From an uncultured Acidobacteriota bacterium (GTDB lineage Bacteria > Acidobacteriota > Blastocatellia > RBC074), in contig CAVUOF010000032.1 of assembly GCA_963743045.1 (NCBI GenBank), forward strand, positions 69,611 through 133,610: a DNA stretch of 64,000 bases. The letters are read 5' to 3'. A program made the translations under genes and the position numbers. Under the pieces are notes generated by a model, which was not told the origin of the DNA, made no database searches, and saw only the letters and a program-made list of their open reading frames with translations. Below are positions 11,813-37,681 of this stretch, piece by piece (position 1 is the first letter of the stretch; each line of letters starts with the position of its first letter).

Positions 11813-11837
11813 ATTGGCAGTTGGCGGCGCCCACGAG

Positions 11838-13074
11838 CTACTGGAGCGAACGCCCGTTTAGGAGGCGCGGATGAAATGCGCGGCTCAGAAAGACCGAGAC
11901 CACACCCGGATCGTTCGGTCCCGAGACCTGTGAAACATTGGTCACGGCCAGGTCTGGAACGCCATCGCGATCGAAGTCCCCCGCACCTATCGTGTAGGCG
12001 CCACCCCGGGTCATGAGATTAATCCCATCCTTGAATGTTCCATTGCCCTTGCCGAGGAGGATCGTGATTCCCTTTGCCGTGCTCTGACCAATCGAGTCGG
12101 TGCTCAGGTTGGAGACTGCGATGTCGAGAATGCCGTCAAGATCGAAGTCCGCCACTGCCAACCACAAGGGGTCTCTGCCCACGGCAGGTTGTGCTGTACG
12201 AGCAAAGGCGCCGGCGCCATTTCCAAGGAATACACTGACGGTCGCGTTGACCGAGTCCGCGCTGATCAGATCAAGATTGCCGTCGTGATTGATGTCTACC
12301 GAGAGCAGGAAATGGGGCCCGGCACCGGTTGTCAGTATGGTCCCCTCTCGAAAGGTTCCGTCGCCATTTCCAAACCGGACGGCAATTGCACTGTCGTCAA
12401 GCACGGCAATCGCGAGGTCGGCTTTGCCGTCGCCGTTGAAGTCTCCGATTGCCACTGCATGGGGACGGTGGCCCGCGTCGAAGCGCGTTCCGTTGGCAGC
12501 CGAAGCGTCGAAGAACGTGCCGTCGCCGCGGCCGATGAAGATCGAGACCAAATTGCGCTCGTCTTCGGCAACAGCGAGGTCCAAGCTTACCGTCATTGTT
12601 CAGATCACCAATGGCGACGTGATGCGGTTGGAGCGAATTGACATCGTGGCCGGCGAAGAATGTGCCGTCGCCGCGCCCGAGGAGAATGGAACAGGTTCCA
12701 ACACCATAGTTGGTGACCACGAGATCGAGGTTTCCGTCGCCGTTGAGATCGCCTGCAGCAATTGAGCTCGGGTAATCGTCTGCCTGCTGCTTGCCAATCG
12801 GATAAGTGCGGGCCCTCGAGAAGATGCCGTTGCCGCCACCAAGCCGAACCACGAGCGACGGAACATATGTACTGCCGCTCGGCTGGTAAAAGTTGGTCTG
12901 CACAAGATCAGGTATCTTGTCGTGATCGAGATCGACGACAAGCAATCCATAGGGTGTATAGACCCGGTCATTGAGCTGGGTGCGCAAATAGTCGACGCCT
13001 TGTTCTGAATGTATCGCGGGATTCAGCGCGACCGCCAGACCCACGAGGGTGAGGAGTATGTACAGCTTTCGCAC
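11838..13074 (-). CDS. FG-GAP/VCBS repeat exported protein, copy A (one frameshift near 12590)
   Basis: Signal MRKLYILLTLVGLAVALNPA. Repeated DxNxDGxxD motifs (GDLNGDGNLDLVV, GDFNGDGKADLAI, DINHDGNLDLIS, DFDLDGILDIAV, DFDRDGVPDLAV). Split between ORFs 12397..13074 and 11838..12596. Confidence 0.7.
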
Positions 13075-13218
13075 GATTCATCGCTCCAGGAAGTCGCTGT
13101 TTAAATCAGCAGACCGGAAGTGGGGGATCGCCGCGAGAGGCGACCACCGGTTGATGGCCTTGCGCAGACGGGGCCAGAACATGCGGCGGCAAGAGGACCT
13201 GTTCCGGGACGAAGGCCG
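11838..13218. repeat. Segmental duplication, copy A (pairs with 30188-31569)
   Basis: Base-by-base reading shows well over 90% identity across the whole FG-GAP gene and ~145 bp upstream. Similarity stops after ...GACGAAGGCCGCCG. Confidence 0.8.
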
Positions 13219-13398
13219 CCGCGATTCTGCCACTCTTCATCCGCCTGCGCCAGCAAATTTGCACTAACGCCCGCTAAGGATTGAGAAGCTGCGCCAGCAC
13301 AATAGGATACCTCATTGATCAAGGGTCTGATCGAATCTCATAGATCCGTTTTCGTTGCGCCGGAGTATTACTCGTGTGAATAAGCAAAGGAGACGACA

Positions 13399-13676
13399 AT
13401 GAGCACGGACATCACCGGGTATCTGGCTTCCTCGGGAAGAATTGAAACAAGCGATCTCGACTGGGAACTCGCGCGCGAGGCCGGACTGACGGACGACGAA
13501 CACTTCGCTCTTACTATTTGCGGATATTGAAAGCCAGACAATCCGGTACCTGCGCACACTGCTTCAAATGAAGATCCGCGCTCGAACCCGATATTTCCGC
13601 ATTCCTGACTACCTGGAGCTACGAAGAATTCTTTCATGGGCAGGCGGTCGGATCGTGCTCGCCAAGTGAACACTGA
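13399..13676 (+). pseudogene. N-terminal fragment of a ferritin-like diiron (ExxH) protein, frameshifted and truncated
   Basis: RBS AAGGAG, then MSTDITGYLASSGRIETSDLDWELAREAGLTDDEHFALT. Shifting frames gives YFADIESQTIRYLRTLLQMK, then ALEPDISAFLTTWSYEEFFHGQA. The sequence stops at the flanking repeat. Family call is tentative. Confidence 0.35.
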
Positions 13677-13694
13677 AGATTGTCGCGCACGGCG

Positions 13695-14015
13695 TCGCGA
13701 AGCGACAACAGAAGGTAGCCAGGGGCGAGCGAAGCGAAGCCCCTGGATAACAAGTAGACAGGACCCCCGCGTCCTGAAGGGACGCGAGACGTGACGCACC
13801 TTGCCACCCTGAAACCCGCACATTCGGGTATCACATGCCTTCCACACACAGGAGCATTCATGTGCACGTTGTCTTCAGCACCAAGAACCGAACCCCTACC
13901 CTATGGAATTCAGTACCGTTCTGGCGCCCCTCCGGGGCGCGGTCTTATTGTTAAACGATCCAGGGGCTGCGCTTCGCTTGCCCCTGGCTACCTTCTTGCA
14001 TCCCTTCGGGATGCA
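13695..14015. repeat. Inverted pair of REP-like hairpin arms flanking a transposase remnant
   Basis: Left arm ...GAAGGTAGCCAGGGGCGAGCGAAGCGAAGCCCCTGG...CGCGTCCTGAAGGGACGCG. Right arm GCGCCCCTCCGGGGCGC...CCAGGGGCTGCGCTTCGCTTGCCCCTGGCTACC..GCATCCCTTCGGGATGC. The arms are reverse complements in module order. Confidence 0.7.
13835..13900 (+). mobile_element. Remnant (first ~17 codons) of an IS200/RAYT-like Y1 (HUH) transposase
   Basis: The ATG at 13835 reads MPSTHRSIHVHVVFSTKNRTP..., the N-terminus I recall for 'HVHxVFSTKxR' IS200-like/REP-associated transposases. The reading frame then runs into the right repeat arm. Confidence 0.45.
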
Positions 14016-14081
14016 TCGCTCGTTGGAAGGTCAGCCTCGCAATTATGAAAACGACACACAACGAATGGGGCTAATTTCCGC

Positions 14082-14918
14082 TGGTAGCGGAATCTGCAGG
14101 TGACCGTTGCACAAATCTCTCTCGGGCCGGCAAAATGAGTTCCATTGAAGGTCTCACTATGGTCCTTCCTCGAGCGGCTGACCTCAGAATGTGAGTCGCA
14201 TTCCGAACTGAATCTGTCTCGGGTCCGCGGCTCCTGTAGGTGTCCCGAAGGCCCGCAGAGGTATCGCCCCCGTTCCGAAGGTCGCATTCGGAAGCTGCAG
14301 GTTCGAGCGATTGAGCAGATTGCGGTCGTTTCCGGTGACGATATTGAAAAGGCAACGCAGAGCCGTAGCTGAAGATGTAGCTCAACTGAAAGCCTGAGAC
14401 GGCTCGCCGCCAGAACGGCTCGCCCGCAACCGCGGTTGGACTCGAGAGCGAACCGCTGATCACAAGCCGGTGCTGCTGATCATTATCTGCCAACCCGCGG
14501 TCGTCGCGCAGATTGAAGTTATTCTGTGGAGTCGAGAAGAACTCGCTGATGTTGGCGAATCGGGGATCCGGCCGCCCAGGTGGGCGATTCCCTTCTGAGG
14601 AGCCTCTGCCGCTGAACCGTTGTAACATTGACATTGCGTGAGAGGATGACGTGAAGACTCCTGACGTAGACGTAGCCAACGGAGAGCGACGTCGACGAGG
14701 CAATCGCGCTCGAGCTGTAGGCTCGCCCGAATCGCGTAGGAGTTTTCGATATTCGGATCAATCGTCGTAATGCTCGCCAGCAACCCTGACGGAAAGGCCG
14801 ACGCCACACTCGGAAATACGGGTGCCCCCGGCTGTCCGAACGGCATCACCGCAACCCGGTACTTCGTGCCGTCGCGTTGCAGAGCATTTGATGTAGCACG
14901 CAGGGGAATGCGATCGTA
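14082..14918 (-). pseudogene. Decayed remnants of two TonB-dependent receptor genes (paralogs of 31772..33998 and 34029..36816)
   Basis: 14082-14168 aligns to the last ~28 codons of the 31772 gene. 14184-14918 aligns to the C-terminal ~340 codons of the 34029 gene (FGQPGAPVFPSV..., SLSVGYVYVRSLHVILSRNVNV, DNDQQHRLVISGSLSSPTAVAGEPFWRRAVSGFQLSYIFSYGS, ...ADPRQIQFGMRLTF*). The second block carries two internal deletions and several frameshifts. Confidence 0.7.
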
Positions 14919-14919
14919 A

Positions 14920-15163
14920 ACCTCTCCAACTCAAGTCGGCATCGTCACCCTGCTGCCGAGTTACTTACGCCGTCACCGGCGATGGCGGGCACTGCTGCTC
15001 TTCATTGCTGGGGCGTTAATGGTGCTCAGCGCGCGCCTCTATTCCTTCACTGCTAGTAAAAAAGAATCACCATTGGAACCGCCTTGTTTTAATCGGGGCA
15101 CTGCTGATTGCAGGCGCGCACCTGATCAATCGACGCCTGTGGCATGCTTGTTCGCATTGTTAA
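14920..15163 (+). pseudogene. C-terminal fragment of a MerC-domain-like small membrane protein (frameshifted)
   Basis: Reads ...VGIVTLLPSYLRRHRRWRALLLFIAGALMVLSARLY, then in another frame LIGALLIAGAHLINRRLWHACSHC*. It begins exactly at the homology break at 14918. Family call is from memory and weak. Confidence 0.3.
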
Positions 15164-18839: not shown

Positions 18840-18899
18840 AAGTTCGCATCAGTATATGATCCCTGCTTTCACGTTGCCAGATCTTTGGAGAATCAGACG

Positions 18900-19183
18900 C
18901 AGCCGTATCTCTTGCCACGTTAGCTATTTTCGCTCAGCCGCTGGTAAGCCCAAGTCAACCACTCAAGCGCTATAACCGGCAATTGGTTAGATACTAGTAG
19001 TCACCTATTGCCGATGCCCTTAGACTGCCCACGCTAATCGACACCTTAATATCGGGTTAGATCGAATCGAGAGCCGATAGGTATGAGCACCGCACTGCGT
19101 GTCCTGATTGCTGACGACGAAAGGCCCGCGCGGTCGTTTCTGGCGGCGCTGCTCCGTCGCTTCGAGGATGTTGTGCTGATTGG
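18900..19183. repeat. Duplicated segment, copy A (pairs with 29690-29974): promoter region plus first ~33 codons of the LytTR regulator
   Basis: Alignable by eye at roughly 85-90% identity, including GCTATTTTCG..CAGCCGCTG.TAAGC.CAAGTCAACCACTCAAGCGCTATAAC and ATACTAGTAGTCACCTATTGCC. Confidence 0.75.
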
Positions 19184-24318: not shown

Positions 24319-27300
24319 TCAAAACACGAGTTTCAGTCCGAACTGCAGCTGTCTCGATGATCCTCTCGTTGTGGTGATCAAGCCCGCACTGCCAACCGGA
24401 CCCGTGCTGGAGAAGACGGTTCGCTGGCTTGGAATTGAAAAGTTCGGGTGGTTCAGGAAGTTGAAAACCTCGGTACGAAACTGCAGAGTAACGCCCTCCC
24501 GCAACCGAAACGACTTGTCTACTGCAAGGTCGAGCGCGATCAGCCCGGGACCGATCAAGGTGTTTCGTCCAAGGTTGCCATAGAAGCCGGGAGCAGGAAG
24601 AGCAAATGCAGCCGGGCTATAGTACCTGCTCGGGTCGCCCAGGATAGGGTTGATGCTCTGCCCGGGCACCAGGTCGGGTCGCTAGGTGATGTTCCAGCCT
24701 GGAAACGGGCTCGCGCCTGGTCGAAGCCGACTACCACTGAGAAGGGGTTGCCTGAAGCCAGGCTTGAAATAGCGTTGAGCTGCCAGCCTGCCGACAGCCA
24801 CTCAGGTCCCAGAAGTTTGGGCACTTGCGCGGTGACGTAACTCACAAAGTAGTGGCGCAGGTCATAATTCGAAAGCCCCCGCTCTTGATTCCGATTGTCG
24901 GGGTCCTGCGGGAGATCGTTGTCGCCACCCTGCGTGGTGACGATCGATGCATCGTCAATAGCCCTCGCGTACGTGTAGCTCGTGTGGAGCATGAGGTACC
25001 GGCCCGAACGGAACTCAAATGTCGTTTGGAGACCATTATAAGAAGAGATTCCGTCCGTGACCTTGTTGCGAATGCCGCTGAAGTTGGGGTTGCGAACGGT
25101 TGAATTGATCGGGAAGAACTTTCGGCCATCAGGAAGGATCGTCGGAATTGCCTGGTTCTGGTCGATCAGTCGAACCTCATGAACCCCATGCTGTCCTACA
25201 TAGGCTACGGTCAGAATCCCCCCTCTCAGGATCTCTCGCTGGATGCTCAAGTTGTAATGCAACGAGTATGGGTTGCCTGGTGTGTATGCCAGTGTGTCCA
25301 GGCGGCCGAGAACGAAGTTGGGGTTCGTCGCGACTGAAGCGGCGTTGGGGAAGCTGGGATTGCGGACGCTGCCCAGAGTATAGAAAGGCGGTTCGCGATT
25401 GGCTGCGTTTGCGTAAAAGTCAGTCCACAGTGGGTCAAAGAAGATGCCAAAGGCGCTTCGCACGCTGGTCTTTCCGTCACCGAACGGGTCCCAGGAGATT
25501 CCCACCCGGGGTGCGAAGTTGAGGTTCGAAGGATTCTTATACAACTGGCCTACCGTCGGCTTTGTATCGTGCAGAGTGTCACGCAGGTTCGCCTCCAGCC
25601 CGTCTCTCTCAGACGGCAGGCTCGTCCGCTCGTAGCGCAGCCCGAGATTGATTGTCAGGCGCCGCGAAAAATGGAAGTCGTCCTGAATGTACGCAGCGGT
25701 CATCGACTGGCTCCAGTGGCGCACCAGCTCAGATCCGGGTAGCGTCAGCTCCATAGCGAACGGAGTCGCTCTGAGGAAGCTCGCCAGCGAATTGAACTGA
25801 TAAAAGCCGTATGGAGACTGCGGGCGGCTGGTCGGCAAGTATATGTTGCGCTGGTCAAATCCGACTTTGAGCGAGTGACGCCCCACAATCCACGAGAGAT
25901 CGTCTCCCAACTGGAAGAGGTTGAGCTCGGAAAAGTTCGGTCCGAAACGACTCGGGCCCATCGAGAACAGTCCCGTGATACTGATCTGGCCGAAGGGCCG
26001 ACCGGGAAAGAATGACAGTGAGGGGTCGATTGGTCGCAGCTCATCAAAGGACTGGCTGCTGGTCGAACGATTGTAGTTAAGACGGACGTTGTTGAGCAGG
26101 CGCTCGTTAAACGTGTGAGTCATCTGGAGCGTCATGTATTGATTTCGAGATTTGGTGCTCGTCTTGATCAGCTGGAGATTGTCGGGCACCTGGACACCCG
26201 CGCTGTCATAAGTGTAGCGACCGAAGATCGAAGTCTTGTCTGAAAAGCGATGATCGACTCGTCCGGCAAAGAAGTCCTCATTGTCAGCATTGGAGCCGGA
26301 TGACAAATACTGCCCCGTGCCGTCATTAAAGTCGCGCCCATTGGGGAGAGGAACCAGAGCAAGATAGGGAGGAATCGATGGGTCAACCGAGATATGAGGG
26401 AGCCCGGGGATGTCTCCGTTTCTTGCTGCCGCGTTGGGTACAACCGCCTGATTCGTAATACCGAGGCGCTGCCTCAGACCCTCATAGCTGGCCAGGAAAA
26501 AGGTCTGGTCATGATGGATGGGGCCATCGATCAGACCCCGAACTGGTTGCGCGAAAAGTGCGGAATCTTTTGGGCTGCCGGATCGAAGAAGTTCTTGGCG
26601 TCGACTGCGCTGTTGCGGAGAAACTCGAACGCCGAGCCGTGCCACTGGTTCGTACCAGACCGGGTGACGGCGCTGATCACACCTCCGGCACTGCGCCCGT
26701 ATTCGGCGCTGTAGCCGTTGGTCAAAACGCGGAACTCCTGCAGTGTGTCGACACCCAGCAGGACTCCCGAAACGCTTCCCGGAGTATTGTTGTTCGCGTC
26801 GTTGATGTCAGCCTGGTCCAGCACAAAACTGATCTGATTGGGACGCCTTCCGCCCACCGATAGCTGCCCGCCACTGCCTGCAGAGTCAGAGGTCCTGCGC
26901 GAAGGCACGACACCCGGCTTCAAGACAGCCAGCTGTACAATATCGCGTCCGTTGAGCGGCAGTTCGCGGATGGAGTCCTTGTCCATGACGCTGGAGAGGG
27001 CAGCGCTGTCAGTTTCGACCCGGCTGACACCGCTCGTGACAACGGTCTCCGATGTTACCGTTCCGACTCTCATGGTGAACTCAAGTCTCGCCCGCTGGCC
27101 GACGGTCAGTTCGACGTTCTCCCTCGTCTCCGTTTGAAAGCCGTCATGAGAGACTGTCACATTGTAGACACCCGTAGGAAGCTGAGTGAATACATAGAAA
27201 CCGACGCTGTTGGTGTGCGTCTCGCGTGAAGCGCCAGTCAGCGGTTGCCGGACCGTAATTTGCGCGTTAACGATGATTGCTCCTGTTCCGTCGCTCACGG

Positions 27301-27394
27301 TCCCTGAGAGCTCTGCTGTGTTCTGTTGAGCCTTCACCATGACGCTCATACAGAATATCGCCGCAAGGCAGAGTGGTCGCTTGGTTCTTCTCAC
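24319..27394 (-). CDS. TonB-dependent receptor (carboxypeptidase-regulatory-like + plug + barrel); two apparent frameshifts (~26600, ~24650)
   Basis: N-terminal part in ORF 26531..27394 (signal, TGAIIVNAQITVRQ..GFYVFTQLPTGVYNVTVSHDGF, plug LPLNGRDIVQLA). Barrel in 24555..26645. C-terminus in 24319..24669, ending RQLQFGLKLVF*. Confidence 0.8.
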
Positions 27395-27530
27395 CGCTTA
27401 TCTCCCTTCGAAAAGGCAGATACATCGCCAATGCTGTTTGCAGGCTGCACCGCACCCGGGCCGGAGGATGGGGCACGACGTCCCCGCGCCAGGACAGCCT
27501 TAGGCCCATCATCCGTTCCCTCGGTCCACG

Positions 27531-28769
27531 CTACAAAGAGATGGTCAGGACGCTCAAATAGGAGTGCGGGATAGGTTGCACTTCCCATCGCATGCCCAGC
27601 CGCTGCAAGGCGGAAAGGGTGCCCGCCTGGTCGATCTGACGAAAGTAGATGTCGAATCTGCTCCAACCTGGTTGAGCCGAGTCCTGGCGAGCCTGAAACA
27701 CCAGACCCACCGTGCCATCAAGGGTCATAAGTCGGGGGTGGTTGGCATCCAGAAGGCTGGTGTCCGCTTCAATCTTTGGCGAGAAGTGGGCGCCGTTGTC
27801 ACTTGACGATGCGACATAGATACGGGACCGGTCACCCGATACCGTGCGCCAGGACGCAAAGATACGACCCTTCAGTGTCGCGAGCGACGGACCTGAGTGC
27901 GGGCATCCGTCTATCTGCCAGTTGTCCTCGGCAACACGTGACGGGGCGCCGAAGGTCGTAGCGCCGTCGGTCGAAGTAGCCACGAATATGTCACGAATGT
28001 CGTTGCCGAGAATCCCGCGCCAGGCGATATGCACCGTCCTGCCGTCGCTGAAGGCTATCTCCGGTCGACAACACGGGCAGACATTCAGCGCCACGCGGAT
28101 GCTCTTCTCAAATGACTGACCGCGATCGGTCGATCTGGCGAGATAGAGTGCGGAGGATACCTGCTTCCCCTGGCCCCGGTCACGCCCGTCCAGCCAGGCT
28201 ACGTAGACGGCCCCATCCGGGCCCACCGCCATCGTGTAAAAGGACTGCGACGCCGTGCTGGCTGGATCAACTGGAATCGGCTTGCTGAATGATTTTCCCC
28301 AGTCCATCGAGCGTGCGAGGCGGAGTGCCGAGCGCTCAGGTCCCGATTCCGCCGTCCAGAGCACATAAAATTCGTGCATGCTGCGCACGGCCATGAGTGG
28401 CATGTTTTCAGGGTGCGATGCCACCGATCCACCTTCGTTGATGCGGACTCCCTGGTCGAAGCTGTCGCCGCCATCGGAAGAGGTCTGCAGCCACAAATCC
28501 TCATCCCTGACGCGCAGGAGGAAGAGGTCTCCGGAAGCGCGGACCCCGAGTTGGGGGTAACCTCCCTTGCCGGTGACGCGCCCCTGGGACTCAAAGGTGA
28601 ATTGAGCTCCGCCGCTGTTCGCTCCGCCAACAAGAGCGCCAACAAAAGCGGATGATCCCGGAGTACAAGCCAGGACGATCGTGACCAGCAGAATCAAGGC
28701 AGATAGGACCGCTGAGTCGGAAGTCAGTTTTCTTGAGAGCAACAGTGATGATGCTGAGCATTTCTTCAT
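27531..28769 (-). CDS. BNR/sialidase-like beta-propeller protein, probable lipoprotein, with conserved CxCC...CP cysteines
   Basis: 412 aa. N-terminus ...LILLVTIVLAC|TPG is lipobox-like. Repeated SxDxGxxF/W motifs (SSDGGDSF, SMDWGKSF, STDRGQSF, STDGATTF, SSDNGAHF). Cys cluster NVCPCCRPE and IDGCPHSG. Confidence 0.6.
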   Translation of the reverse strand: MKKCSASSLLLSRKLTSDSAVLSALILLVTIVLACTPGSSAFVGALVGGANSGGAQFTFESQGRVTGKGGYPQLGVRASGDLFLLRVRDEDLWLQTSSDGGDSFDQGVRINEGGSVASHPENMPLMAVRSMHEFYVLWTAESGPERSALRLARSMDWGKSFSKPIPVDPASTASQSFYTMAVGPDGAVYVAWLDGRDRGQGKQVSSALYLARSTDRGQSFEKSIRVALNVCPCCRPEIAFSDGRTVHIAWRGILGNDIRDIFVATSTDGATTFGAPSRVAEDNWQIDGCPHSGPSLATLKGRIFASWRTVSGDRSRIYVASSSDNGAHFSPKIEADTSLLDANHPRLMTLDGTVGLVFQARQDSAQPGWSRFDIYFRQIDQAGTLSALQRLGMRWEVQPIPHSYLSVLTISL

Positions 28770-29016
28770 GACTTTGTGACCTTGTGTTCTTAACCAGTTG
28801 CTCGCGAGACATTCGAAACGTTGATCGCGGGCGTCGGCCGGTCATGCGACCTGTCCGCGGCGCTACGTTAGCTACATTGCCCCATAGACTTCGCTATCAG
28901 ACCTGTGACGTCCGGAGTCCCGAGATGTGGCTGCAAGGATTGGCCCCGCCACAAACTCCTCGCGCGCACGTGCACCGCGTCTACGGCACGCCTACGAACC
29001 GAGGTATAGAGTGATG

Positions 29017-29463
29017 TCAACTTTTTTGATCAAGTCGATTCAGGCGCGGAGGCCCGCGTGGAGAAGAGGACTCCTGGATCGGAGTCTTGTGCAGGAGGAT
29101 AGGCTGTGATTGTGTCTCGTCCCTGTTGGATAAGTCGCGTTCGTCAAATGGTGAGCGATACCCATTGCGAGCCAGCGTCTGCACGGACGCGCCCGACAAC
29201 GCTCGCTCACCTGGGCATGGCCTGGAGATTTCCGGCGTGCCGACCTGAGTATTCCTGTCCTCAAGTTGTCCCTGGACGAATGCGTGGTGTGGCAGGCAGC
29301 AACAATGGCCCGCGGTGATGCAGCATGATACCGAGCAAACATCCGAGTCGTAGACGGCGAGGGAGAGAGGAGTTGCGAGCCAGCCTGACAGGAAGAGAGC
29401 GGCCGCACAAACGGCACGCCACGATGCTTTGTTCGGGAGGCTGGGTAGCACAGGTGACCACAT
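29017..29463 (-). CDS. Exported Cys/His-cluster protein, paralog 2 (C-x3-CC-x4-HCCC-x-P-HH)
   Basis: From the ATG at 29463: MWSPVLPSLPNKASWRAVCAAALFLSGWLATPLSLA|VYDSDVCSVSCCITAGHCCCLPHHAFVQG...SRPCPG...SSPRGPP.... It is a paralog of 36946..37347 with identical motif spacing. Confidence 0.55.
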   Translation of the reverse strand: MWSPVLPSLPNKASWRAVCAAALFLSGWLATPLSLAVYDSDVCSVSCCITAGHCCCLPHHAFVQGQLEDRNTQVGTPEISRPCPGERALSGASVQTLARNGYRSPFDERDLSNRDETQSQPILLHKTPIQESSSPRGPPRLNRLDQKS

Positions 29464-29689
29464 TATCGACCTGCCGCTAGTGATATGTAAAGTTGTTTTA
29501 CGCCGAAAGTAGCGAGCGCATTCCGAGCCGGCGGGTCGTGGTGATTCCATGATTGAGTTGAGAGATGAGCAGGAGTCAAGAGTGAATTAGGTAGACCTGA
29601 AAAGCACGAAGCTGTTGTAGGAACAACACTCTGAGGTCTTGTCGAGATTCTTGCTGCCTGGCGCGAGCGGCCGAAGGACGGGTCCAGAT

Positions 29690-29974
29690 CGCCGCTGTGT
29701 CTCTTGCGATGTTGGCTATTTTCGTCAGCCGCTGATAAGCGCAAGTCAACCACTCAAGCGCTATAACAAGCAATTGGTTAAATACTAGTAGTCACCTATT
29801 GCCGCAGCACTTAGATTGCCCACGCTAATCGGCACCTTAATATCGGGGTAGATCGAATCGAGAGCCGAGAGGTATGGGCACCGCACTGCTTGTCTTGATT
29901 GCTGACTATGAACGGCCCGCGCGGTCGTTTCTGGCAGCGATGCTGCGCAGCTTCGAAGATGTTGAGCTGATTGC
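29690..29974. repeat. Duplicated segment, copy B (pairs with 18900-19183)
   Basis: Same conserved blocks as copy A. Similarity ends inside the regulator's receiver domain. Confidence 0.75.
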
Positions 29975-30138: not shown

Positions 30139-31426
30139 CTAAGCCTGAAAACCCTTACAGAGACGACAGGATGGAGTAGCACCACGCGCTACTGGAGCGA
30201 GCGCCCGTTGAGCAGGCGTCGGATGAAATGAGCGGCTCAGAAAGACCGAGACCACACCCGGATCATTCGGTCCCGATACCTGTGAAACATTGGTCACGGC
30301 CAGGTCTGGAACGCCATCACGATCGAAGTCCCCCGCACCTATCGTGTAGGCGCCACCCCGCGTCATGAGATTGATCCCATCCTTGAATGTTCCGTCGCCC
30401 TTGCCGAGGAGGACCGTGATTCCCTTTGCCGTGCTCTGACCAATCGAGTCGGTGCTCAGGTTGGCGACTGCGATGTCGAGATTGCCATCAAGATCGAAGT
30501 CCGCCACTGCCAGCCACAAGGGGTCTCTGCCTACGGCAGGTTGTGCGGTACGAGCAAAAGCGCCGGCGCCATTTCCAAGGAATACGCTGACGGTCGCGTT
30601 GACCGAGTCCGCGCTGATCAGATCAAGATTGCCGTCGTGATTGATGTCTACGGAGAGCAGGTAATGGGGCCCGGCACCACTTGTCAGGGTAGTTCCCTCT
30701 CGAAACGTCCCGTCGCCATTTCCTAACTTGATGGCAATTGCACTGTCGTCGAGTACGGCAATCGCGAGGTCTGCTTTGCCGTCGCCATTGAAGTCTCCGA
30801 TTGCCAGCCGCATGGGGACGGTGGCCCGCGTCGAAGCGCGTTCCGTTAGCAGCCGAAGCGTCGAAGAACGTGCCATCGCCGCGGCCGATGAAGATCGAGA
30901 CTAAATTGCGCTCGTCTTCTGCGACCGCCAGGTCCATCTTACCGTCGTTATTCAGATCACCAACGGCGACGTGATGCGGCTGGAGTGAATTGAAATCGTG
31001 TCCGGCGAAGAATGTGCCATCGCCGCGCCCGAGGAGAATGGAGCAGGTTCCAACACCATAGTTGGTGACTACGAGATCGAGGTTTCCGTCACCGTTGAAA
31101 TCGCCTGCAGCAATAGAACTTGGGTAGTCGTCTGCCTGCTGCTTGCCAATGGGGTAAGTGCGGGCCCTCGAGAAGACGCCGTTGCCGCCACCAAGCCGGA
31201 CTACGAGCGAGGGAACGTATGTACTGCCGCTCGGCTGGTAAAAGTTGGTCTGCACGAGATCAGGTATCTTGTCGTGATCGAGATCGACGACAAGCAATCC
31301 GTAGGGCGTATAGACCCGGTCATTGAGCTGAGTACGCAGATAGTCGATGCCTTGTTCTGAATGTATCGCGGGATTCAGCGCGACCGCCAGACCCACGAGG
31401 GTGAGGAGTATGTAAAGCTTTCTCAC
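30139..31426 (-). CDS. FG-GAP/VCBS repeat exported protein, copy B (frameshifts near 30850 and 30215)
   Basis: Nearly identical to copy A (the first 26 residues are identical). Split between ORFs 30623..31426 and 30139..30876. A 1-nt difference near the 3' end extends the reading frame past the stop used in copy A. Confidence 0.7.
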
Positions 31427-31569
31427 GGTTTATCGCTCCAGGCAGTCACTGTTCAAGTCAGCGGACCGGTAGGGAGGTTCCCGCGAGAGGCGACCACCGG
31501 TTGTTGGCCTTGCGCAGACGGTGCCAGAACATGCGGCGGCAAGAGGACCTGTTCGGGACGAAGGCCGCC
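30188..31569. repeat. Segmental duplication, copy B (pairs with 11838-13218)
   Basis: See copy A. Confidence 0.8.
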
Positions 31570-31771
31570 GTCACTATTCTCTTTCCCGCTGAGCATGGGA
31601 CCGCCTCGTGCAGGAAGTCGGCTCAAAGATTGGTTCGCTGCCGGGCCCCGAATGGTATCCGAGTAATGCGCAAGTATTTTGAGAAGGGCAAAAGCCCTTC
31701 GTCTGTGATGCAGGTGGATCGCCGCCTCGATATTCATTCCTGGCCCGGCTGTCGGATCGTGGCCACTTGCG

Positions 31772-33998
31772 CTAGTAGTGGAACCGGTAGGTGACAGCTG
31801 CATAAATCTGTCTCGGGTCGGCATAGTGAGTGCCATTGAAGGTCTCACTGTTGTCCAACAGGAACCGCCGGTTGGCTACATTCAGCATGTGAACGGCAAT
31901 TGAGAGTTTTTCGCCCATAGCCTTTCCCAACGCCAGGTCGAAGGTCGTGTGCCCCGGAAGATGTTGGGGCGCATTGTCTCCATCGACGAAGCCCGACCCA
32001 TAGTAGACGTTGGTAGCTGCAAATGCGCTCCAGGGGAGACGGATATCCCCTCCCACGTTGAGCGTGTTGCGCTGATCATGGTCGAGGAGGAAGTAGTCGC
32101 TCGGCGGAGAGAAGTCGGTCAAGCCACCAGTCACGGCTCCCTGTCCTTCCAGTTTCAACCAGGCATAGGCCGCGTGCACTTGAGCTCGCTGAAACAGCCT
32201 TGGCGAATTGACAGTCACCTCCCACCCTCTGGCCCTGCCTCGCTCAATGGTCACCGGAAAGAAGATGTTCGAGTCGCCGAGCGCATTGTGATCGAAGAGA
32301 TTCTTCGTGCCGGTATGAAAGTAGTCTCCGTCGAGCGTCCAGCCACGAACGGGGAGTGTCAATCCGACCTGATACTCTTCGTTGCGTTCGCCGTGCAGCG
32401 GCAGAAAGGCGAAGCCCTCGTCGAGCGCGAAATCGATCACCGGGCCTTGAACGGTAGACAACGGCGGAGCCTGATAATAACGGCCATAGAATCCTCTCAG
32501 CACCAGACCTGCGCGAGGCAGACGAACCGCGACGCCCGCGCGAGGACTTCCAATGGTCTCGCTCACTCCTCCGTCGAAATGGGTCAATCGCGCGCCCAGA
32601 GTGAGAGTCAGCCAGCCGGTCGGCTTCATCTGATCCTCGAGAAAGAAGGCCTCCAGGTTCCCTGACGGCTTCTCCCTTTGGAGCAGGCTTCCTCCAGTCC
32701 CGTCGTTCGCCTGGAGACCGAAAGAGGCGGTGTCGCTCTGATAGAACGCGTAAACGCCAGCTTTTGCGCTGTGACGATTTGCTCAGCCAGCTGAGCGTCA
32801 CCTGGCCTCCGGCATAGTTCGAAAGGCGTTTCTCCTGCGGGATTATCGGGTTGTCATCGGGACCGCCAAGGAATGACGCATTGTTGAAATGCAGGAATGG
32901 AGAGACAGTCAGCAGCAGGCGCGGTGTGAGAGTTCGGACCCAGGAGAGGTTGATATACCCGTCACTCTCAATCTCGACGTCTCTGATACCGGCCGCTTGT
33001 GTCTCTGGATCGTTGGGCACCTGGTAGAAGTCGCGACGTGCTGAGGCCACCAGACGCAGTTGATCGACGGGAGTCGCGTTGAATGCCAACGAAACGAATG
33101 CCCCGATGCCGTTTCCCAAATCATGGATGACATCCGGTCCCGGGGTCGCCAATCCATAGTCGCTCCGGTTGCCGTTGAGGCTCACAAAATAGGCGAACCG
33201 CTGAGTGTGACTGGCAAAACTGACCTGGTCATTGGTCTGGTTGAAGCTGCCGTAGCTCAGCCTCAGCTCACCTTCCTGATTGCGCTCAAATCCCGACCTC
33301 GGCACGACGTTGAAGACGGCATAAGTGCGGTCGCCGTAGGCTGCCGAATAACTTCCCCGCTGCACTTCGAGGTAATCAATATCTTTCGGATCCACTTGTG
33401 GCGCCACATTGCTGGCGATATTGGTGTTCGGCACCGGAACACCGTCGATCAGCCAGCTGACCTGGTGCCCGCCGCGAACATGCAGGAGATCGTGTGTGAC
33501 ATAGGCTCCCGGAACGTAGTTGGTAATCATCGCCAGGCTGTTGCTGCGATCCGCGCCGGGCGTCCGCGCAATCCTCTCTCGTCCGATAAGAGTCGTAGGC
33601 GTTGGTGAATCCGAACCAATGAGCTCGGGCGCCTCCACGACATCGACTCCTTGCGTAACCGGAGCAATATGCATTGCAAATTCAAGGATTGGGGCATTGT
33701 CCGTGAGAACCGTCACCGGCTGCTCAATCCTGGCGAACCCGCCCGCCTCAACCGTCAGAACATACTCGCCGACGGGAACCGAACGAAAAATGAACTCGCC
33801 GTGATCATCCGTCACAACGGAAAGAACCAGTTGCGAGGTGCGCGATTGGAGGGTCACTTGAGCACCCTTTATTGCCTGCTGCTGAGGATCACGCACCAGA
33901 CCACGCACGTCGCCGAGTACAGCGGCATTCAGGTTTGAAATCATCGCGAGCAGAATGACGGCTGGCAGGATGACAAATAGCAACACCTTTCGACGCAT
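31772..33998 (-). CDS. TonB-dependent receptor (carboxypeptidase-regulatory-like N-domain); at least one frameshift (~32650-32760)
   Basis: Signal MRRKVLLFVILPAVILLAMISNLNA. GLVRDPQQQAIKGAQVTLQS..GEFIFRSVPVGEYVLTVEAGGF, then plug RTPGADRSNSLAMITNYVPG..VRGGHQVSWLIDGVP. The C-terminal ORF 31772..32629 ends YAAVTYRFHY*. Confidence 0.75.
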
Positions 33999-34028
33999 GA
34001 TACCTCCCTTCGTCGAAGCGGCTTGACC

Positions 34029-36816
34029 TCAGAATGTGAGTCGCAATCCGAATTGAATCTGCCTGGGATCTGCCGCCCCTGTGGGCGTCCCGAACGCCGG
34101 CGGCGGAATTGTCCCTGTTCCAAAGGTTGCGTTCGGGAGCTGCAGGTTGGCGCGATTGAGCAGGTTGAAGCCCTCGGCCAGCACATCGAGGCCGAATCTC
34201 TCGGTGAACCTGAAATGGCGGCTGAGTCTCATATCGAAAGAAGCAAAATCAAACCCGACGCCTGTGTTTCGGCCAACTCCGACAGGCCGGTCATTGACCG
34301 CCGTATCATTGTTACGATCGTTGCCAGTTACGATGTTGAAGGGCAAGGACGAGCCATAACTGAAGATGTAGCTCAACTGGAATCCTGACACGGCTCGCCG
34401 CCAGAATGGCTCACCGGCAGCCGCCGTTGGGCTCGACAGCGAACCGCTGATTACAAGTCGATGCCGCTGATCGTTATCCGACAGGCCCCGGTCATCGCGT
34501 AGATTGGAGTTATCCTGCGGGCCGGAAAAGAAGGCGCTTCCCGTATTATCGATCGCCTTCGAGAACGTATAGGAGAGTCTTAAGCCGGCCCAGCTCTTGA
34601 ACCTGCGATTGAGTGAGACAGTCAACCCGTTGTAGTAGGCGTCGCCTGAGCCTTCGTAGCGGCTGATGTTGGCGAAGAGAGGATCGGGACGGCCAAGATT
34701 GGCGATGCCTTTCTGCGTTGCCTCCGCCGCCGAGACGGTTGGAACATTGACGTTGCGCGAAAGAATGACGTGCAGACTCCGCACGTAGACGTACCCGACC
34801 GAGAGCGACGTCGACGAGGCAATCTCGCGCTCCACCTGGAGGCTCGCCCGCAGCGCGTTGGAATTCTCTATGTCAGGATCGATGCGCGTAATGCTGGCCA
34901 GCAACCCGGTCGGAAACGCCGGCAAAACGCTCGGGAAGATGGGTGTACCGGGCTGTCCGAACGGGATCACCGCGACCAGGTATTTCGTGCCGTCACGCTG
35001 CAGAGCATTCGATGTGGCGCGCAGGGGAATGCGATCGTAATAGGTACCATAGCTCGCACGAATGACCGTCTTGTGGTCGCCCGGCGACCAGGCGATGCCG
35101 AGACGGGGAGATATATTGTTGGTGTCTGTTTTGATCGGATCCGGCAGAAACTGCAGGTCGTAACGCAGCCCCAGATTGATCGTGAAATTCTTCAGCCGCC
35201 ATTCGTCCTGAACAAAGAACCCGACGTTTGGATTCGACTGAAACTGGCCTGGTGCTCCGAACGCCTGCTGGAAAGTTACGTACTGGCCGCGAATGAAATT
35301 GGCAAGGTTGGAGAATGTATAGACGCCCTGGAGCGCCCCGGGAAACTCGATGTCGACGCGGTTGAGCAGAAAATCGAGCCCGAATTTCAACGAGTGGGCC
35401 CCTCGACGAAGTGTCATGCTATCGACCGCCTGAATCGAGTCGATATTGCGCTCAGTGGGAGACGACGTCGCTGTGCCCATATTGGCCACACCCGATATCG
35501 AGATGGCCGGGCCGATGAGATCGTTCGGCGGAGCTCCCAGACGGCTGCGCGTGTACTGGAACCGAGCCTCGTTCATCAGTCGCGGAGAGAGAGTGGCGAC
35601 CTCGCTCAGGACTATCGATTGATCGCGACTGTCGAGTGCCGTTCCTCGGCTCACAGCATTGATTCCGCCAACGTTGCGCGCATTGAGGCTCGAAATGTCG
35701 TAGTAGCTGTAACGAGCCGAAAGCAGGTTTGCCGGGTTTATCCGATGGTCCACTCGAACAAAGACGTTGGATGTGTTGTAACCGGCCGGCGCGAGTCCGG
35801 TCTCAACTCTCGATGCGGAGTATTTGACCTGGTTGAGAATGTCATTGATGGCCAGCACGCTGGCCGGCGTTATCGTCAGGACAACTGCGTTATGAAGCCG
35901 CGTCTGCTCGAAGTTGGCAAAGATGAACGTCCGATCCCTGACTATCGGGCCTCCCCCCGTGGCTCCGTATTGCGCTTGCGTCAACGGGTCCTTCGTCCTG
36001 GCCAGAGGATTTCGCGCGTCAAAACGCTGGTTGCGCAGGAAGCCGTACAACCGGCCATGCCAGTCATTGGTTCCTGACTGCGTGACTGACATTGATGATT
36101 CCCGCAGATGCTCGCCCGTACTCGGCGATACCACCGGAAGTGATGACCTGAAACTCACGAATCACGTCCTGGCTGAAGAAGGTCGCCGGAAGATCGGCAG
36201 CATCGTCGTTGGAGGAGAGCCCATCCAGCAGAAATCCGTTGTTGATATTCCTCTGGCCGGTAACCGAGATCGCCGTGCCTGGGACTGCGGAAGTCTCGGC
36301 AAAGCGCTGGTTACTTACAGGATTTGCTCTCGTCACTCCCGGCGTCAGCGCCGCAAGGTCGAGATAATTGCGCCCGTTCAGCGGAAGCGAATCGACCTCC
36401 TTCGGGAGTATGGTCTCGGATACCTGGGTACGCGCGGTCTCTATGATCGGCGCATCCGAATGAACCTCGATTTGTTCACTGACGACGACACCCAGCTTAA
36501 TAGGAACGTCGAGCGTCTGGCCGACAGTGAGAGACAATGCGAGAACAAAGGTGGCAAATCCATCTCGTTCAGCTTTGAGTTGATAGCGTCCGACAGGCAG
36601 ATATGTAAAGCGATATCTGCCCTGGGCATCACTCGTCGTTTGCCATGTTTCGTTCTGATCAACCCTCGTCACGGTGACCGTAGCGCGGGCCACCATGGCG
36701 CCCTGCATGTCTTCGATAGTGCCGCTGAGCGTAGCCGAGGTAACGCTCTGTTGTGCTCTGGCCGTCGCAGCAGTCAAAAGGAGAAGGACTGCGAGCATGG
36801 CCAACCTGCGTCTCAT
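34029..36816 (-). CDS. TonB-dependent receptor (carboxypeptidase-regulatory-like N-domain); one frameshift (~36070-36150)
   Basis: N-terminal ORF 36064..36816 (MRRRLAMLAVLLLLTAATARAQ, GTIEDMQGAMVARATVTVT..GRYRFTYLPVGRYQLKAERDGF, LPLNGRNYLDLAAL). A 709-aa barrel ORF follows, ending ADPRQIQFGLRLTF*. Confidence 0.8.
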
Positions 36817-36945
36817 ACTCCTCCGAACTTCCTCTTTGCGTCCCCTGGGACCGCAGAGAAGTGGAGATCAGCTGAATGAGCGCTGCATGAACTGTCGCTG
36901 CACGAGCGGATTCAACTCGAGCAACCTGACAGTGTCAGCGCAAGA

Positions 36946-37347
36946 TTAGCTTTGACGGAGAGTATGGGCCGGAGGTGCTCGCGGCGATGCGATTTCGAAG
37001 CGGTCTGCCTCGTGAACTCGCCTTACCTGAGCGTGCGGGATCGCAGGCGGAGCCATCGCTTCGAATTGGTGCGAATGGTCGCCAGCGGCAGTACCAGTGA
37101 AGTTTGAGGACGAAACACCTGCAGTCGAGCAACTGCCGGGGCATGGGCGATTGAGCTCCGGATTGCGAATCTCGTCTCTGCCCGATGGGATTTCGCCCTT
37201 GACGTAAGCATGATGTGGAGAGCAACAGCAATGGCCGACGGCCACGCAGCACTCCATGGTACAGACATCAGCCTCGTAGGTTGCGAAGGCGAGAGGCGCA
37301 GACAGCCAGCCAAGCAGCAGTGCAAGTAGTGCGCTTGCAGCGCGCAA
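36946..37347 (-). CDS. Exported Cys/His-cluster protein, paralog 1 (C-x3-CC-x4-HCCC-x-P-HH), first gene of the receptor operon
   Basis: A TTG start at 37347 gives (M)RAASALLALLLGWLSAPLAFA|TYEADVCTMECCVAVGHCCCSPHHAYVKG...NRPCPG...ASPRAPP.... It lies 129 bp upstream of the receptor gene on the same strand. Confidence 0.55.
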   Translation of the reverse strand: MRAASALLALLLGWLSAPLAFATYEADVCTMECCVAVGHCCCSPHHAYVKGEIPSGRDEIRNPELNRPCPGSCSTAGVSSSNFTGTAAGDHSHQFEAMAPPAIPHAQVRRVHEADRFEIASPRAPPAHTLRQS

Positions 37348-37681
37348 ATTGAGCTTTGCTCTGGCGAAGCATTATCATGAACTTAAGTAGAGGAACTGGA
37401 CTTTGCTAGTTGCACCTTACTCCGGCGGATTGGGTCAGTCAAGCGCAATCTATTGCACCTTGTTTCCCGCCGCCGCCAAGAGAACAGCCGCTGCCGCGGC
37501 TCCAGCAATGCCACAATCCATTGACAAGTCAGCTCGCATCGGAGCATTCCGGAAGTACAACTGAACTCACGGCAGAAGATACTCAGCGTCGCCTGTCCCA
37601 TCGCCATTTAGGTTTCTCTCGCGAACGATACGCGACGTAAAGGAATGATTGACGAACACGCCCCGGAGCTGACGCCCAACG

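Follow-up and report, generated by a model that had tools for sequence, protein, structure and literature searches.

Organization of the locus

The region analysed here, a 64,000-nt window of contig CAVUOF010000032.1 from a soil acidobacterium of the Blastocatellia type, contains on its minus strand a block of four genes in the order leader, R1, R2 and FG-GAP (Table 1). The original prediction had placed the genes in this order, with R2 located 30 nt after R1 and a 345-nt gap between R2 and the FG-GAP gene. Order, strand, positions and both distances were borne out, but none of the genes is a continuous open reading frame in the window, and two boundaries, the start of the leader and the stop of the FG-GAP gene, have to be moved.

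Table 1. Coordinates of the gene block, its regulatory features and related regions in the 64,000-nt window.
Feature	Position	Strand	Description
Leader 1	36946..37378	-	small exported Cys-rich protein; 143 aa by read-through
Sensor cluster CTMECCVAVGHCCC	37222..37263	-	C-x3-CC-x4-HCCC, directly after export signal
RAPP codons	36970..36981	-	putative ribosome-arrest motif, 7 residues before stop
Leader-R1 spacer	36817..36945	-	129 nt; hairpins; R1 ribosome-binding site GGAGGAG at 3' end
R1	34029..36816	-	Oar-like TonB-dependent transporter; CarboxypepD_reg + OMP_b-brl_4; 928 aa read through
R2	31772..33998	-	classical TonB-dependent transporter; CarboxypepD_reg, Plug, TonB_dep_Rec_b-barrel; 741 aa read through
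R2 to FG-GAP gap	31427..31771	-	345 nt; hairpin within
FG-GAP copy A	30189..31426	-	exported seven-bladed FG-GAP/VCBS beta-propeller; 411 aa read through
Second cassette	24555..29550	-	leader 2 with RGPP, BNR-like propeller, R3; directly downstream of block
Decayed receptor remnants	14076..14927	-	R1 (aa 371-489, 541-608, 665-709) and R2 (C-terminal 27 aa); upstream of copy B
FG-GAP copy B	11838..13074	-	extra base near 12585

Each of the four genes is interrupted by one or two single-base indels. In the leader, the frame is broken by an extra T within TTT (37346-37348), so that the real start is the ATG at 37378, the TTG at 37347 being merely the first in-frame start after the shift. R1 has one extra base near 36093, and R2 has one in an AAA near 32784. 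Extra bases near 30806 and 30218 shift the frame of the FG-GAP gene, so that its real stop is at 30189-30191 and not at 30139. Frameshifts also affect rpoB, secA, uvrA and a parC-like gene in this assembly, and the indel rate, read as assembly error, is ca. 0.4-0.7 per kb. The host genome is rated 78% 'complete', yet consists of only 33 contigs. Finally, the read-through products of the leader, R1, R2 and FG-GAP genes match intact metagenome relatives in length (143, 928, 741 and 411 aa versus 143, 928, 740 and 411 aa, respectively). We therefore conclude that the broken frames are assembly errors.

Two receptors behind one leader

R1 shares the architecture of Oar-type TonB-dependent transporters (PF25183 OMP_b-brl_4 and CarboxypepD_reg; E 8e-128); no solved structure was found for it by sequence search. 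Intact R1 orthologs are 61-71% identical, and the leader precedes them in most loci whose contigs reach far enough. Because R2 follows R1 after only 30 nt and has its own ribosome-binding site (GGGAGG), the two genes are almost certainly co-transcribed. The same pair, coding for 928 and then 740 aa and separated by 23 nt, is present in metagenome contig P0010. Two receptors behind one Cys-rich leader had been thought unusual. This view is not supported, since in six other loci (L030, L035, L052, L055, L056 and L057) the leader and R1 are accompanied by a second receptor without an intervening leader. Orthologs of R2 in loci L076-L078 (65-72% identity) are each immediately preceded by a leader of their own that had not been called as a gene.

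The FG-GAP gene is separable from the receptors

Intact relatives of the FG-GAP protein are 95% (P0009, 411 aa), 87% (P0011, 411 aa), 86% (P0010, 440 aa) and 83% (P0012, 408 aa) identical to it. An AF2 model (pLDDT 80, pTM 0.81) gave CRTAC1, integrin alpha and PVL lectin as best Foldseek matches; it has a generic integrin/lectin propeller look, with no evident metal site. The protein, which contains FG-GAP_3 repeats, matches these seven-bladed propellers (integrin alpha head, CRTAC1, fungal PVL lectin) in predicted fold with a Foldseek probability of 1.0 and is, at ca. 400 aa, the size of PVL, but sequence identity to the matched structures is only 10-22%. Unlike them, it is bacterial, exported and encoded beside putatively metal-regulated transporters.

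The predicted duplicate at 11.8-14.9 kb exists. Positions 30182-31570 and 11831-13221 are 93% identical, the 144 nt of the gap closest to the FG-GAP gene (31427-31570) being 88% identical in copy B. Copy B is followed by genes for arginine decarboxylase and deoxyhypusine synthase, and the R1 and R2 remnants upstream of it (80-82% identity) adjoin a P1B heavy-metal ATPase gene. Comparison of the two FG-GAP copies yielded a dN/dS of 0.08 at a dS of 0.23, i.e., strong purifying selection.

The original prediction took the genes to behave as one unit and named a promoter and terminator in the gap, together with lack of synteny, as evidence that would speak against it. The outcome is mixed. A simple scan of the gap revealed neither a sigma-70 promoter nor a terminator, and there was no Rfam match; synteny is restricted to very close relatives, R1-R2-FG-GAP or R2-FG-GAP adjacency being observed in three metagenome contigs (P0010, P0129 and L060). 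The trio was also copied together, but in the copy the receptors then decayed while the FG-GAP gene stayed under purifying selection. In its strong form, the idea holds that everything from the leader through the FG-GAP gene is obligate, with the propeller capturing substrate for R1 and R2 and being co-transcribed with them under leader control. The shared direction of the genes, the joint duplication, the lack of a canonical promoter or terminator in the gap and the three syntenic contigs agree with this. So does the position of the FG-GAP gene, equivalent to that of the BNR-like propeller in sister cassettes (a propeller occupies this slot in ca. 20 cassettes), and so does its nearest ortholog outside the lineage (locus L059, 83% identical), which lies in a different operon between a CutF-like gene and OEP. 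The CutF-like gene is small and Cys-rich, ends with a PP motif and by inspection has the features that define this class (see below). We nevertheless consider an obligate unit unlikely: copy B is preserved beside decayed receptors; 86 further genomes of the family yielded no FG-GAP ortholog, although the members examined have leader-R1; the operon that houses the ortholog in L059 is a different one; the distance between R2 and the FG-GAP gene is long and variable (267, 300, 345 and 1180 nt); and a hairpin, GAAGGGC-TTTT-GCCCTTC at 31700-31683, with no T-run behind it, follows R2. We regard the FG-GAP gene as a loosely attached, lineage-specific passenger. It is probably a recent addition that supplies an exported accessory protein in place of the BNR-like propeller, probably has its own promoter within the ca. 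144 conserved nt upstream, and could function without adjoining receptors; any role it has in uptake would be accessory.

The leader family

In relatives examined, the small Cys-rich gene lies directly upstream of R1 orthologs, in agreement with its predicted role as the gene heading the operon. Its product has no Pfam or NCBIfam match (for Pfam, even at E<=10) and belongs to a compact Blastocatellia family of 223 clusters that lacks a Pfam model; an intact 143-aa member (P0001) is 73% identical to leader 1 over the full length. The N-terminus resembles an export signal, with a basic stretch followed by a hydrophobic segment, and this signal/anchor segment is unusually conserved, including a GW motif. 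Among 38 homologs, four Cys residues of the sensor cluster are invariant and the other two, as well as Gly-His, are at least 90% conserved, while at the other end of the protein the R and both P residues of RAPP are invariant and the A nearly so. Between the two motifs, sequence conservation is low but the length is fixed: of 36 locus ORFs, 34 have RAPP 83-86 residues after the His, and two lack the motif. In 84 database representatives, the cluster-to-motif distance is 80-88 residues (mode 84), the motif is RAPP (66), RGPP (15) or RSPP (3), and 0-15 residues separate RAPP from the stop. A second Cys pair precedes RAPP by about 50-54 residues.

C outnumbers G (C/G up to 1.9) in a stretch that covers the 3' end of the leader ORF. 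Spacers equivalent to the one between leader and R1 are ca. 110-290 nt long in 15 related loci. Folding energies of the spacer are unexceptional, and a conserved RNA structure could not be demonstrated among related loci because their sequences are too divergent to align.

Leader-BNR-R3 cassettes orthologous to the second cassette are present in four loci (L031, L034, L041 and L044). In three genomes (L045, L047 and L051), the leader family heads operons containing DJ-1, MbnP, MbnH and transporter genes, which points to copper. A CusF/SCO1 gene near L078, cobW with a CDF transporter near L076 and, in the window, the P1B ATPase gene beside copy B add to this link, but there are zinc contexts as well. 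Judging mainly by gene neighbourhoods in other genomes, copper is probably the metal sensed.

Comparison with known arrest peptides

The leader was compared with three known systems. CruR is the small product of the first gene in the CruR (Bp2923, DUF2946)-BfrG-Bp2921 locus of Bordetella pertussis and regulates a TonB-dependent transporter in a copper-dependent manner (Roy et al. 2022, PMC9426467). The protein combines an export signal with a CXXC motif and, at conserved spacing, a C-terminal RAPP; a 162-bp spacer follows. The leader resembles it in its export signal, in a Cys-based metal motif with RAPP at a fixed distance, and in a long structured spacer before a TonB-dependent transporter gene, and homologs of both families head MbnPH operons. 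In contrast to CruR, it has no DUF2946 (PF11162) match. Its sensor, C-x3-CC-x4-HCCC, is separated from RAPP by 83-86 residues and is joined by the second Cys pair, whereas the CXXC of CruR is at 45 residues. The host belongs to the Acidobacteriota and not the Proteobacteria, the transporters are of the CarboxypepD_reg/Oar type, and beta-propellers are found instead of a PepSY_TM partner.

CutF-like proteins, named after CutF of the Rhodobacter capsulatus cutFOG operon (Ozturk et al. 2023, PMC9973294), are by definition shorter than 150 aa, carry a signal peptide and a Cys/His motif, have a PP motif among their last 15 residues and are followed within 1 kb by a gene on the same strand. The leader has all of these features. 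The long distance from sensor to arrest motif fits extracytoplasmic sensing, as proposed for CutF. Here, however, the downstream genes code for transporters and not a multicopper oxidase, the spacer exceeds 100 nt, and a conserved stem-loop masking the ribosome-binding site is not demonstrable. Acidobacteriota are not mentioned in the main text of that paper.

RAPP and RGPP rank as the strongest arrest motifs, and small secretory proteins carrying them are enriched upstream of genes for TonB-dependent receptors (Fujiwara et al. 2025, PMC12992588). Leader 1 with RAPP and leader 2 with RGPP, both putative arrest sequences near the C-terminus, resemble this 'TonB-related' uORF class; unlike ApdA, ApdP and ApcA, they show no linkage to genes for Sec or YidC.

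Proposed function of the block

Based on these results, we propose, with a probability of roughly 60%, that the block is an operon for outer-membrane uptake in an acidobacterium of the Blastocatellia type, regulated by a metal, most likely copper, headed by a CruR/CutF-class leader and with a loosely attached FG-GAP gene. The ca. 143-aa leader would act as an exported nascent-chain sensor. During its translation and export, the Cys/His cluster, which precedes RAPP by 83-86 residues, would already have left the ribosome, and probably the Sec channel too, at the time the ribosome pauses on RAPP. Metal bound to this cluster, or to the second Cys pair, may alter the duration of the stall, and the length of the stall would decide whether transcription or translation continues through the spacer into R1 and R2. 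R2-type receptors, which carry their own leader in other genomes, would here have been joined behind R1 without one, so that an Oar-like and a classical receptor would both be under leader control. Because the leader departs from both CruR and CutF in sensor motif and spacing, the mechanism is argued by analogy; arrest at RAPP, the identity of the metal and the direction of regulation are inferred.

The leader product could instead be a mature periplasmic or secreted metal binder, a chaperone or a metallophore-like carrier passed to the receptors, and not a regulator. A dense invariant Cys/His cluster behind an export signal, the conserved GW-containing segment and the constant proximity of transporters would suit such a protein. 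Its variable yet length-constant portion from the cluster to the C-terminus would not, and RAPP/RGPP near the C-terminus is a hallmark of arrest peptides that is otherwise avoided in proteomes (PMC12992588); CruR, moreover, is reported to be poorly structured and short-lived (PMC9426467). We thus regard a pure metal binder as improbable. Metal-binding and regulatory roles of the leader are not mutually exclusive.

That the block consists of decaying pseudogenes with real frameshifts is very unlikely, even though all of its long genes are frameshifted, true decay is seen nearby in the receptor remnants at 14.1-14.9 kb, and several gene stumps are present in the window. The same sort of shift affects rpoB and secA, which are essential and single-copy; FG-GAP copies A and B are shifted at different sites and are nevertheless under purifying selection; the block genes contain no in-frame stops or deletions, and their read-through products equal intact relatives in length; and two of the five indels are in short AAA or TTT runs. 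A SusC-style carbohydrate or peptide uptake locus without a metal component, suggested by the CarboxypepD_reg N-terminal domains typical of SusC/Oar-type transporters, the likeness of the FG-GAP model to GlcNAc-binding PVL lectins and the BNR/sialidase-like propeller of sister cassettes, is just as implausible, since the block has no SusD, glycoside hydrolase or regulator and matches TIGR04056 weakly, over 66 residues, while the sensor chemistry of the leader is thiolate-rich and its family heads MbnPH operons.

Gene Order and Reading Frames of the Block

Gene order, strand and the existence of a second, duplicated copy, as given in the original prediction, were confirmed, but none of the genes of the block is present as an uninterrupted ORF, each being frameshifted. 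Removal of single bases yields products of 143, 928, 741 and 411 aa for the leader, the two TonB-dependent receptors (R1 and R2) and the FG-GAP protein, respectively. The repaired leader 1 is 73% identical to an intact metagenome protein of 143 aa (P0001), the FG-GAP protein is 95% and 87% identical to two intact metagenome proteins of 411 aa each (P0009 and P0011), and an intact receptor pair of 928 and 740 aa, matching the read-through sizes of R1 and R2, is encoded on the metagenome contig that carries P0010. The block's FG-GAP gene (copy A) and the second one (copy B) are shifted at different places, and they differ by 15, 5 and 59 changes at codon positions 1, 2 and 3, respectively (dN 0.019, dS 0.23, dN/dS 0.08). 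In the same assembly (4.78 Mb, 33 contigs, marker completeness of 78%, ca. 0.4-0.7 indels per kb), rpoB contains at least two frame changes, secA is in two pieces, and frame changes also affect uvrA and a parC-like gene; rpoC is intact, as is gyrA. We conclude that the frameshifts in the block are assembly errors. Real pseudogenisation was rejected on account of the shifted rpoB and secA, the lengths of intact relatives and the low dN/dS.

The frameshifted essential and housekeeping genes of this genome (G000) are located at C22:140553-144843 (rpoB), C28:22089-24495 (secA), C19:30863-33239 and C31:102842-105603. Because such genes are affected, "broken gene", "gene stump" or pseudogene observations from other parts of this genome need the same caution and may be artefacts.

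Features of the block, its duplicate and neighbouring repeats (positions in the window)
Feature	Position	Strand	Remark
Leader 1	37347-36946	-	Small Cys-rich ORF; actual start ATG 37378
Leader 1 shift	37346-37348	-	TTT, one extra T
R1	36816-34029	-	CarboxypepD_reg, OMP_b-brl_4 (E 8e-128)
R1 shift	near 36093	-	Splits reading frame
R2	33998-31772	-	CarboxypepD_reg, Plug (E 2e-10), TonB_dep_Rec_b-barrel (E 6e-21)
R2 shift	near 32784	-	At AAA run
Gap between R2 and FG-GAP	345 nt	-	Precedes FG-GAP start at 31426
Gap hairpin	31700-31683		GAAGGGC-TTTT-GCCCTTC
FG-GAP copy A	start 31426, actual stop 30189-30191	-	FG-GAP_3 repeats
FG-GAP copy A shifts	near 30806; second extra base near 30218	-	Split frame, move stop
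Leader 2	29550-29017	-	Second copy of leader family in genome
Duplicated stretch, copy A	30182-31570		93% identical to copy B stretch
Duplicated stretch, copy B	11831-13221		93% identical to copy A stretch
R1/R2 remnants	14076-14927		80-82% identity
Spacer, R2 remnant to FG-GAP copy B	13222-14075		ca. 855 bp, missing from copy A
290-bp direct repeat, first copy	29685-29973		Between FG-GAP copy A and leader 2
290-bp direct repeat, second copy	18894-19182		Covers first ca. 100 nt of LytTR response-regulator gene (start 19083)

A Family of Leaders Heading Transporter Operons

The leader has no match among Pfam or NCBIfam models. Neither of its two copies in the genome, both of which lie inside the window, scores against PF11162 (DUF2946) at E<=10, and nothing at either leader was revealed when the whole genome was searched in six frames with this model. 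A pattern scan with one genome per species returned 31 loci, whose labels are nearly all Blastocatellia or Acidobacteriota, and only 223 clusters, almost always ca. 140 aa in length, were recovered from 1.84 billion representatives by profile search.

The N-terminus of the family is basic and is followed by a hydrophobic segment, roughly RLRA..ALLALLLGWL..SLA; the export signal was called by inspection from these two features. Immediately past the hydrophobic segment lies a conserved cluster, D-x-C-x-M-x-CC-x3-GHCCC, and the C-terminus carries a conserved (S/P)PRAPP, whose RAPP has an invariant R, P and P. The distance from the His residue to RAPP is 83-86 residues in 34 of the 34 locus ORFs that have both motifs, and 80-88 (mode 84) in 84 database representatives, the intervening sequence being poorly conserved. 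The putative arrest motif is RAPP in 66 of these representatives, RGPP in 15 and RSPP in three. Most members have a second, CPxxC-like Cys pair, about 50-54 residues ahead of RAPP. The tail from the motif to the stop codon is 1-14 residues long in the loci, 0-15 in the representatives and 7 in leader 1, and each of the two leader ORFs of the window has a C>G-rich stretch at its 3' end.

A transporter, or a propeller and a transporter, follows the leader in 26 of the 31 genome loci, three of which have DJ-1 and MbnPH genes ahead of the transporter; in the remaining loci either the contig end is reached or no transporter is shown. The spacer between the leader and the next gene is ca. 110-290 nt long in related loci.

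These features resemble those of published metal-sensing leaders. CruR of Bordetella pertussis has an export signal, a CXXC motif, RAPP three residues from its end with a conserved spacing, and a 162-bp spacer behind it; copper sensed by the nascent chain relieves arrest and brings about Rho-dependent termination ahead of the transporter gene (PMC9426467). Like CruR, the leader ends in RAPP a few residues from the stop codon and opens an operon that has a long intergenic spacer and a TonB-dependent transporter. Unlike CruR, it lacks a PF11162 match, and its C-x3-CC-x4-HCCC cluster lies at 83-86 residues, whereas the CXXC of CruR lies ca. 45 residues before RAPP. The operational definition of CutF-like proteins (PMC9973294) also describes the leader: a length below 150 aa, an N-terminal export signal, a Cys/His motif, PP among the final 15 residues and, less than 1 kb away, a gene on the same strand (R1, 129 nt downstream). 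Among arrest motifs, RAPP and RGPP are the most robust, and proteomes avoid them (Fujiwara et al. 2025, PMC12992588); the same study found both over-represented close to the C-terminus of small secretory proteins whose genes lie upstream of those for TonB-dependent receptors. We conclude that the leaders form a new sequence family of probable regulators, whose kind is already described but whose phylum is new. Metal-sensing arrest-peptide leaders (CruR, CutF), a class discovered only recently, would thereby extend to Acidobacteriota, with a family that has no Pfam model and whose sensor motif and sensor-to-arrest spacing are unlike the known ones. Abundant soil bacteria that are hard to grow have very large sets of TonB-dependent transporters, and the family may offer a testable way into how these are regulated and which of them handle copper.

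In a tree of 36 leaders, in which the window leaders are unplaced, members group by genome lineage and not by the type of the downstream receptor, and one clade (support 100/100) mixes leaders from R1 cassettes, BNR-R3 cassettes and others, a pattern suggestive of concerted evolution or of duplications that recurred within lineages. Leaders directly upstream of R2-type receptors are uncalled in the source annotations in three cases out of three (L076:1075-1611, L077:4549-5079 and L078:7421-7861). The family is probably under-annotated, gene callers routinely missing it.

Proposed Mechanism and Sensing Geometry

Several mechanistic points are put forward by analogy: ribosome arrest, the identity of the metal, the direction in which regulation works, whether control is Rho-dependent or translational, and any part played by the FG-GAP protein. 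According to the figures used for CutF, the ribosome tunnel shields ca. 30 residues, and crossing the membrane takes ca. 17 (PMC9973294). Since the Cys cluster is 83-86 residues away from the arrest site, it would already be beyond the Sec channel at the time of arrest, and the second Cys pair, at ca. 50-54 residues, would be near the channel exit. Such a geometry would fit periplasmic metal sensing of the CutF-like kind better than the cytoplasmic sensing proposed for CruR.

RNA structure in the spacer between the leader and R1 was also sought. Eleven of 16 extracted spacers were aligned (47% mean identity) and RNAalifold returned no structure for them, single-sequence folds were not exceptional (z of -1.7 and +0.1), and Rfam gave nothing in the 28-38 kb part of the window.

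Receptors and Cassette Architectures

Both R1 and R2 have the plug and barrel domains of TonB-dependent transporters; in R1, a plug-type motif, INVVTQSGTN, is present once the frameshift is removed. R2 starts 30 nt past the R1 stop codon, with a GGGAGG ribosome-binding site ahead of it. When the larger fragment of either receptor was scanned against NCBIfam, only weak, generic TonB-dependent transporter matches were obtained, and none to TIGR01778 (OprC/NosA-type copper transporters). TIGR04056 (SusC) matched at E 1e-3 over 66 residues only and the block contains no SusD-like gene, on which grounds a SusC/SusD-type locus was rejected. Among solved structures, R1 and the BNR-like propeller protein had no match, and R2 had a weak transporter match only.

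Searches of the leader loci with window proteins (tblastn) revealed four layouts. In the first, the leader is followed by an R1-type receptor and a BNR-like propeller (for example, L036, L037, L040, L046, L049, L058, L009, L013 and L014). In the second, a second receptor is inserted between R1 and the propeller (L030, L035, L052, L055, L056 and L057). In the third, the leader precedes a BNR-like propeller and an R3-type receptor (L031, L034, L041 and L044), as in cassette 2 of the window at 29550-24555, to which these loci are 60-80% identical. The fourth consists of nothing but a leader and an R2-type receptor. A pair of receptors behind a single leader, thought unusual when the block was first described, is therefore a recurrent layout, and we conclude that tandem receptors are ordinary for this module. 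The true R2 orthologs (L076, L077 and L078; 65-72% identity) each have their own leader directly upstream; in the window and on the P0010 contig, R2 lies 23-30 nt behind R1 without one.

Identity of the Metal

In three related loci (L045, 8959-15783; L047; L051) the leader heads genes for DJ-1/PfpI, MbnP (with cytochrome c), MbnH (CCP_MauG) and a TonB-dependent transporter, in that order. MbnPH genes are associated with copper, and these operons are of the copper-acquisition type. MbnPH is also listed among the partners of DUF2946 (PMC9426467). One R2 ortholog (L078) is near a CusF/SCO1/redoxin gene, and in the window a P1B heavy-metal ATPase gene adjoins FG-GAP copy B. Another R2 ortholog (L076) is near cobW and a CDF transporter gene, a context of the zinc type. 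Because of the MbnPH operons, the CusF/SCO1 neighbour and the P1B ATPase, copper appears to be the best guess, even though a zinc-type context is also seen.

The FG-GAP Gene and Its History

The FG-GAP gene encodes an exported protein of 411 aa with two FG-GAP_3 matches (E 4e-26 and 4e-30). Its AF2 model (pLDDT 80, pTM 0.81), for which CRTAC1, integrin alpha and PVL lectin are the best Foldseek matches, is that of a predicted seven-bladed FG-GAP/VCBS beta-propeller. Neither 30 relatives nor the 86 other family genomes yielded an ortholog; the best matches there are ca. 45% identical, over repeats of much larger proteins. A metagenome scan revealed only one further close FG-GAP locus, on a 2-kb contig.

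Four close orthologs from metagenomes could be compared for their contexts. On the 18-kb P0010 contig, genes for a GMC oxidoreductase, a 526-aa protein and a 392-aa protein are followed by a 778-nt gap, the 928-aa and 740-aa receptors, FG-GAP, arginine decarboxylase and deoxyhypusine synthase. On the P0129 contig, an R2 ortholog (87% identical) precedes FG-GAP by a 267-nt gap, and in L060 the order is the R2 3' end, a 1.18-kb spacer, FG-GAP and arginine decarboxylase. In L059 (829-4145), FG-GAP (83% identical) lies 128 nt behind a gene for a 134-aa TM/Cys-rich protein and is followed by an OEP outer-membrane efflux/TolC-like gene; the 134-aa protein, which contains CPSFC, CFCCCSH and a C-terminal HPPRFWV, is CutF-like by operational criteria. 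Since FG-GAP is found twice behind leaders of the metal-sensor type, a link of this gene to metal handling is plausible.

In the window, GMC, barrel and propeller genes lie upstream of cassette 1 (47-42 kb), and arginine decarboxylase and deoxyhypusine synthase genes lie downstream of FG-GAP copy B. Judged from the order, sizes and domains of its genes, the P0010 contig seems to preserve the ancestral layout, before duplication. The segment from the middle of R1 to the FG-GAP stop codon appears to have been duplicated in this genome, with ca. 15 kb, including cassette 2 and the ATPase gene, between the two copies. The receptor parts of copy B would then have decayed to fragments, and FG-GAP copy B has stayed under purifying selection; divergence of the receptor remnants (18-20%) is close to the FG-GAP dS. 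Both FG-GAP copies are preceded by 144 nt that are 88% identical between them.

The genes had been argued to behave as one unit, the FG-GAP gene travelling with receptor remnants in the duplicate. FG-GAP was indeed physically carried with the receptors, but it is a lineage-specific, separable gene, a loose and recent addition, and the receptors of copy B are decayed. A promoter and terminator in the gap between R2 and FG-GAP, which would have spoken against a single unit, were not found by consensus scan, matches of which were at chance level. The gap does contain a hairpin, which is followed by no T-run and, in L060, has one stem base that differs without compensation. FG-GAP very likely has its own promoter.

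Pfam gave no match for a 159-aa ORF in the spacer between the R2 remnant and FG-GAP copy B. Of this spacer, the proximal 424 bp are common to L060 (94% identity), and the distal half bears no relation to L060. The two copies of the 290-bp direct repeat (88.6% identity) flank a ca. 10.5-kb segment with cassette 2, and the repeat looks like a rearrangement scar.

A Possible Metal-Uptake Module

Blastocatellia may possess a so far undescribed outer-membrane metal-uptake module that combines an arrest-peptide leader, one or two transporters and an interchangeable propeller, although we consider this unlikely, at perhaps one chance in five. In such a module, a Cys-cluster RAPP arrest peptide would sense periplasmic copper with a sensor that lies ca. 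84 residues away from the arrest site; the leader would control one or two TonB-dependent transporters, Oar-type or classical; and an exported beta-propeller, either BNR-like with a Cys site or of the FG-GAP type, would capture the metal or its carrier for the transporter. If so, the FG-GAP gene would recently have been swapped into the propeller position. The earlier interpretation of the block holds as far as a regulator-like leader at the head of the operon and an FG-GAP gene that travelled with the receptors are concerned, but not in a special receptor pair or a firmly attached FG-GAP gene.

Several MAG records with these cassettes (L036, L046, L049, L050 and L051) are titled "Heliomicrobium sp.", otherwise the name of a Bacillota genus. 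On acidobacterial cassettes with outer-membrane transporters, such titles are probably a naming collision.
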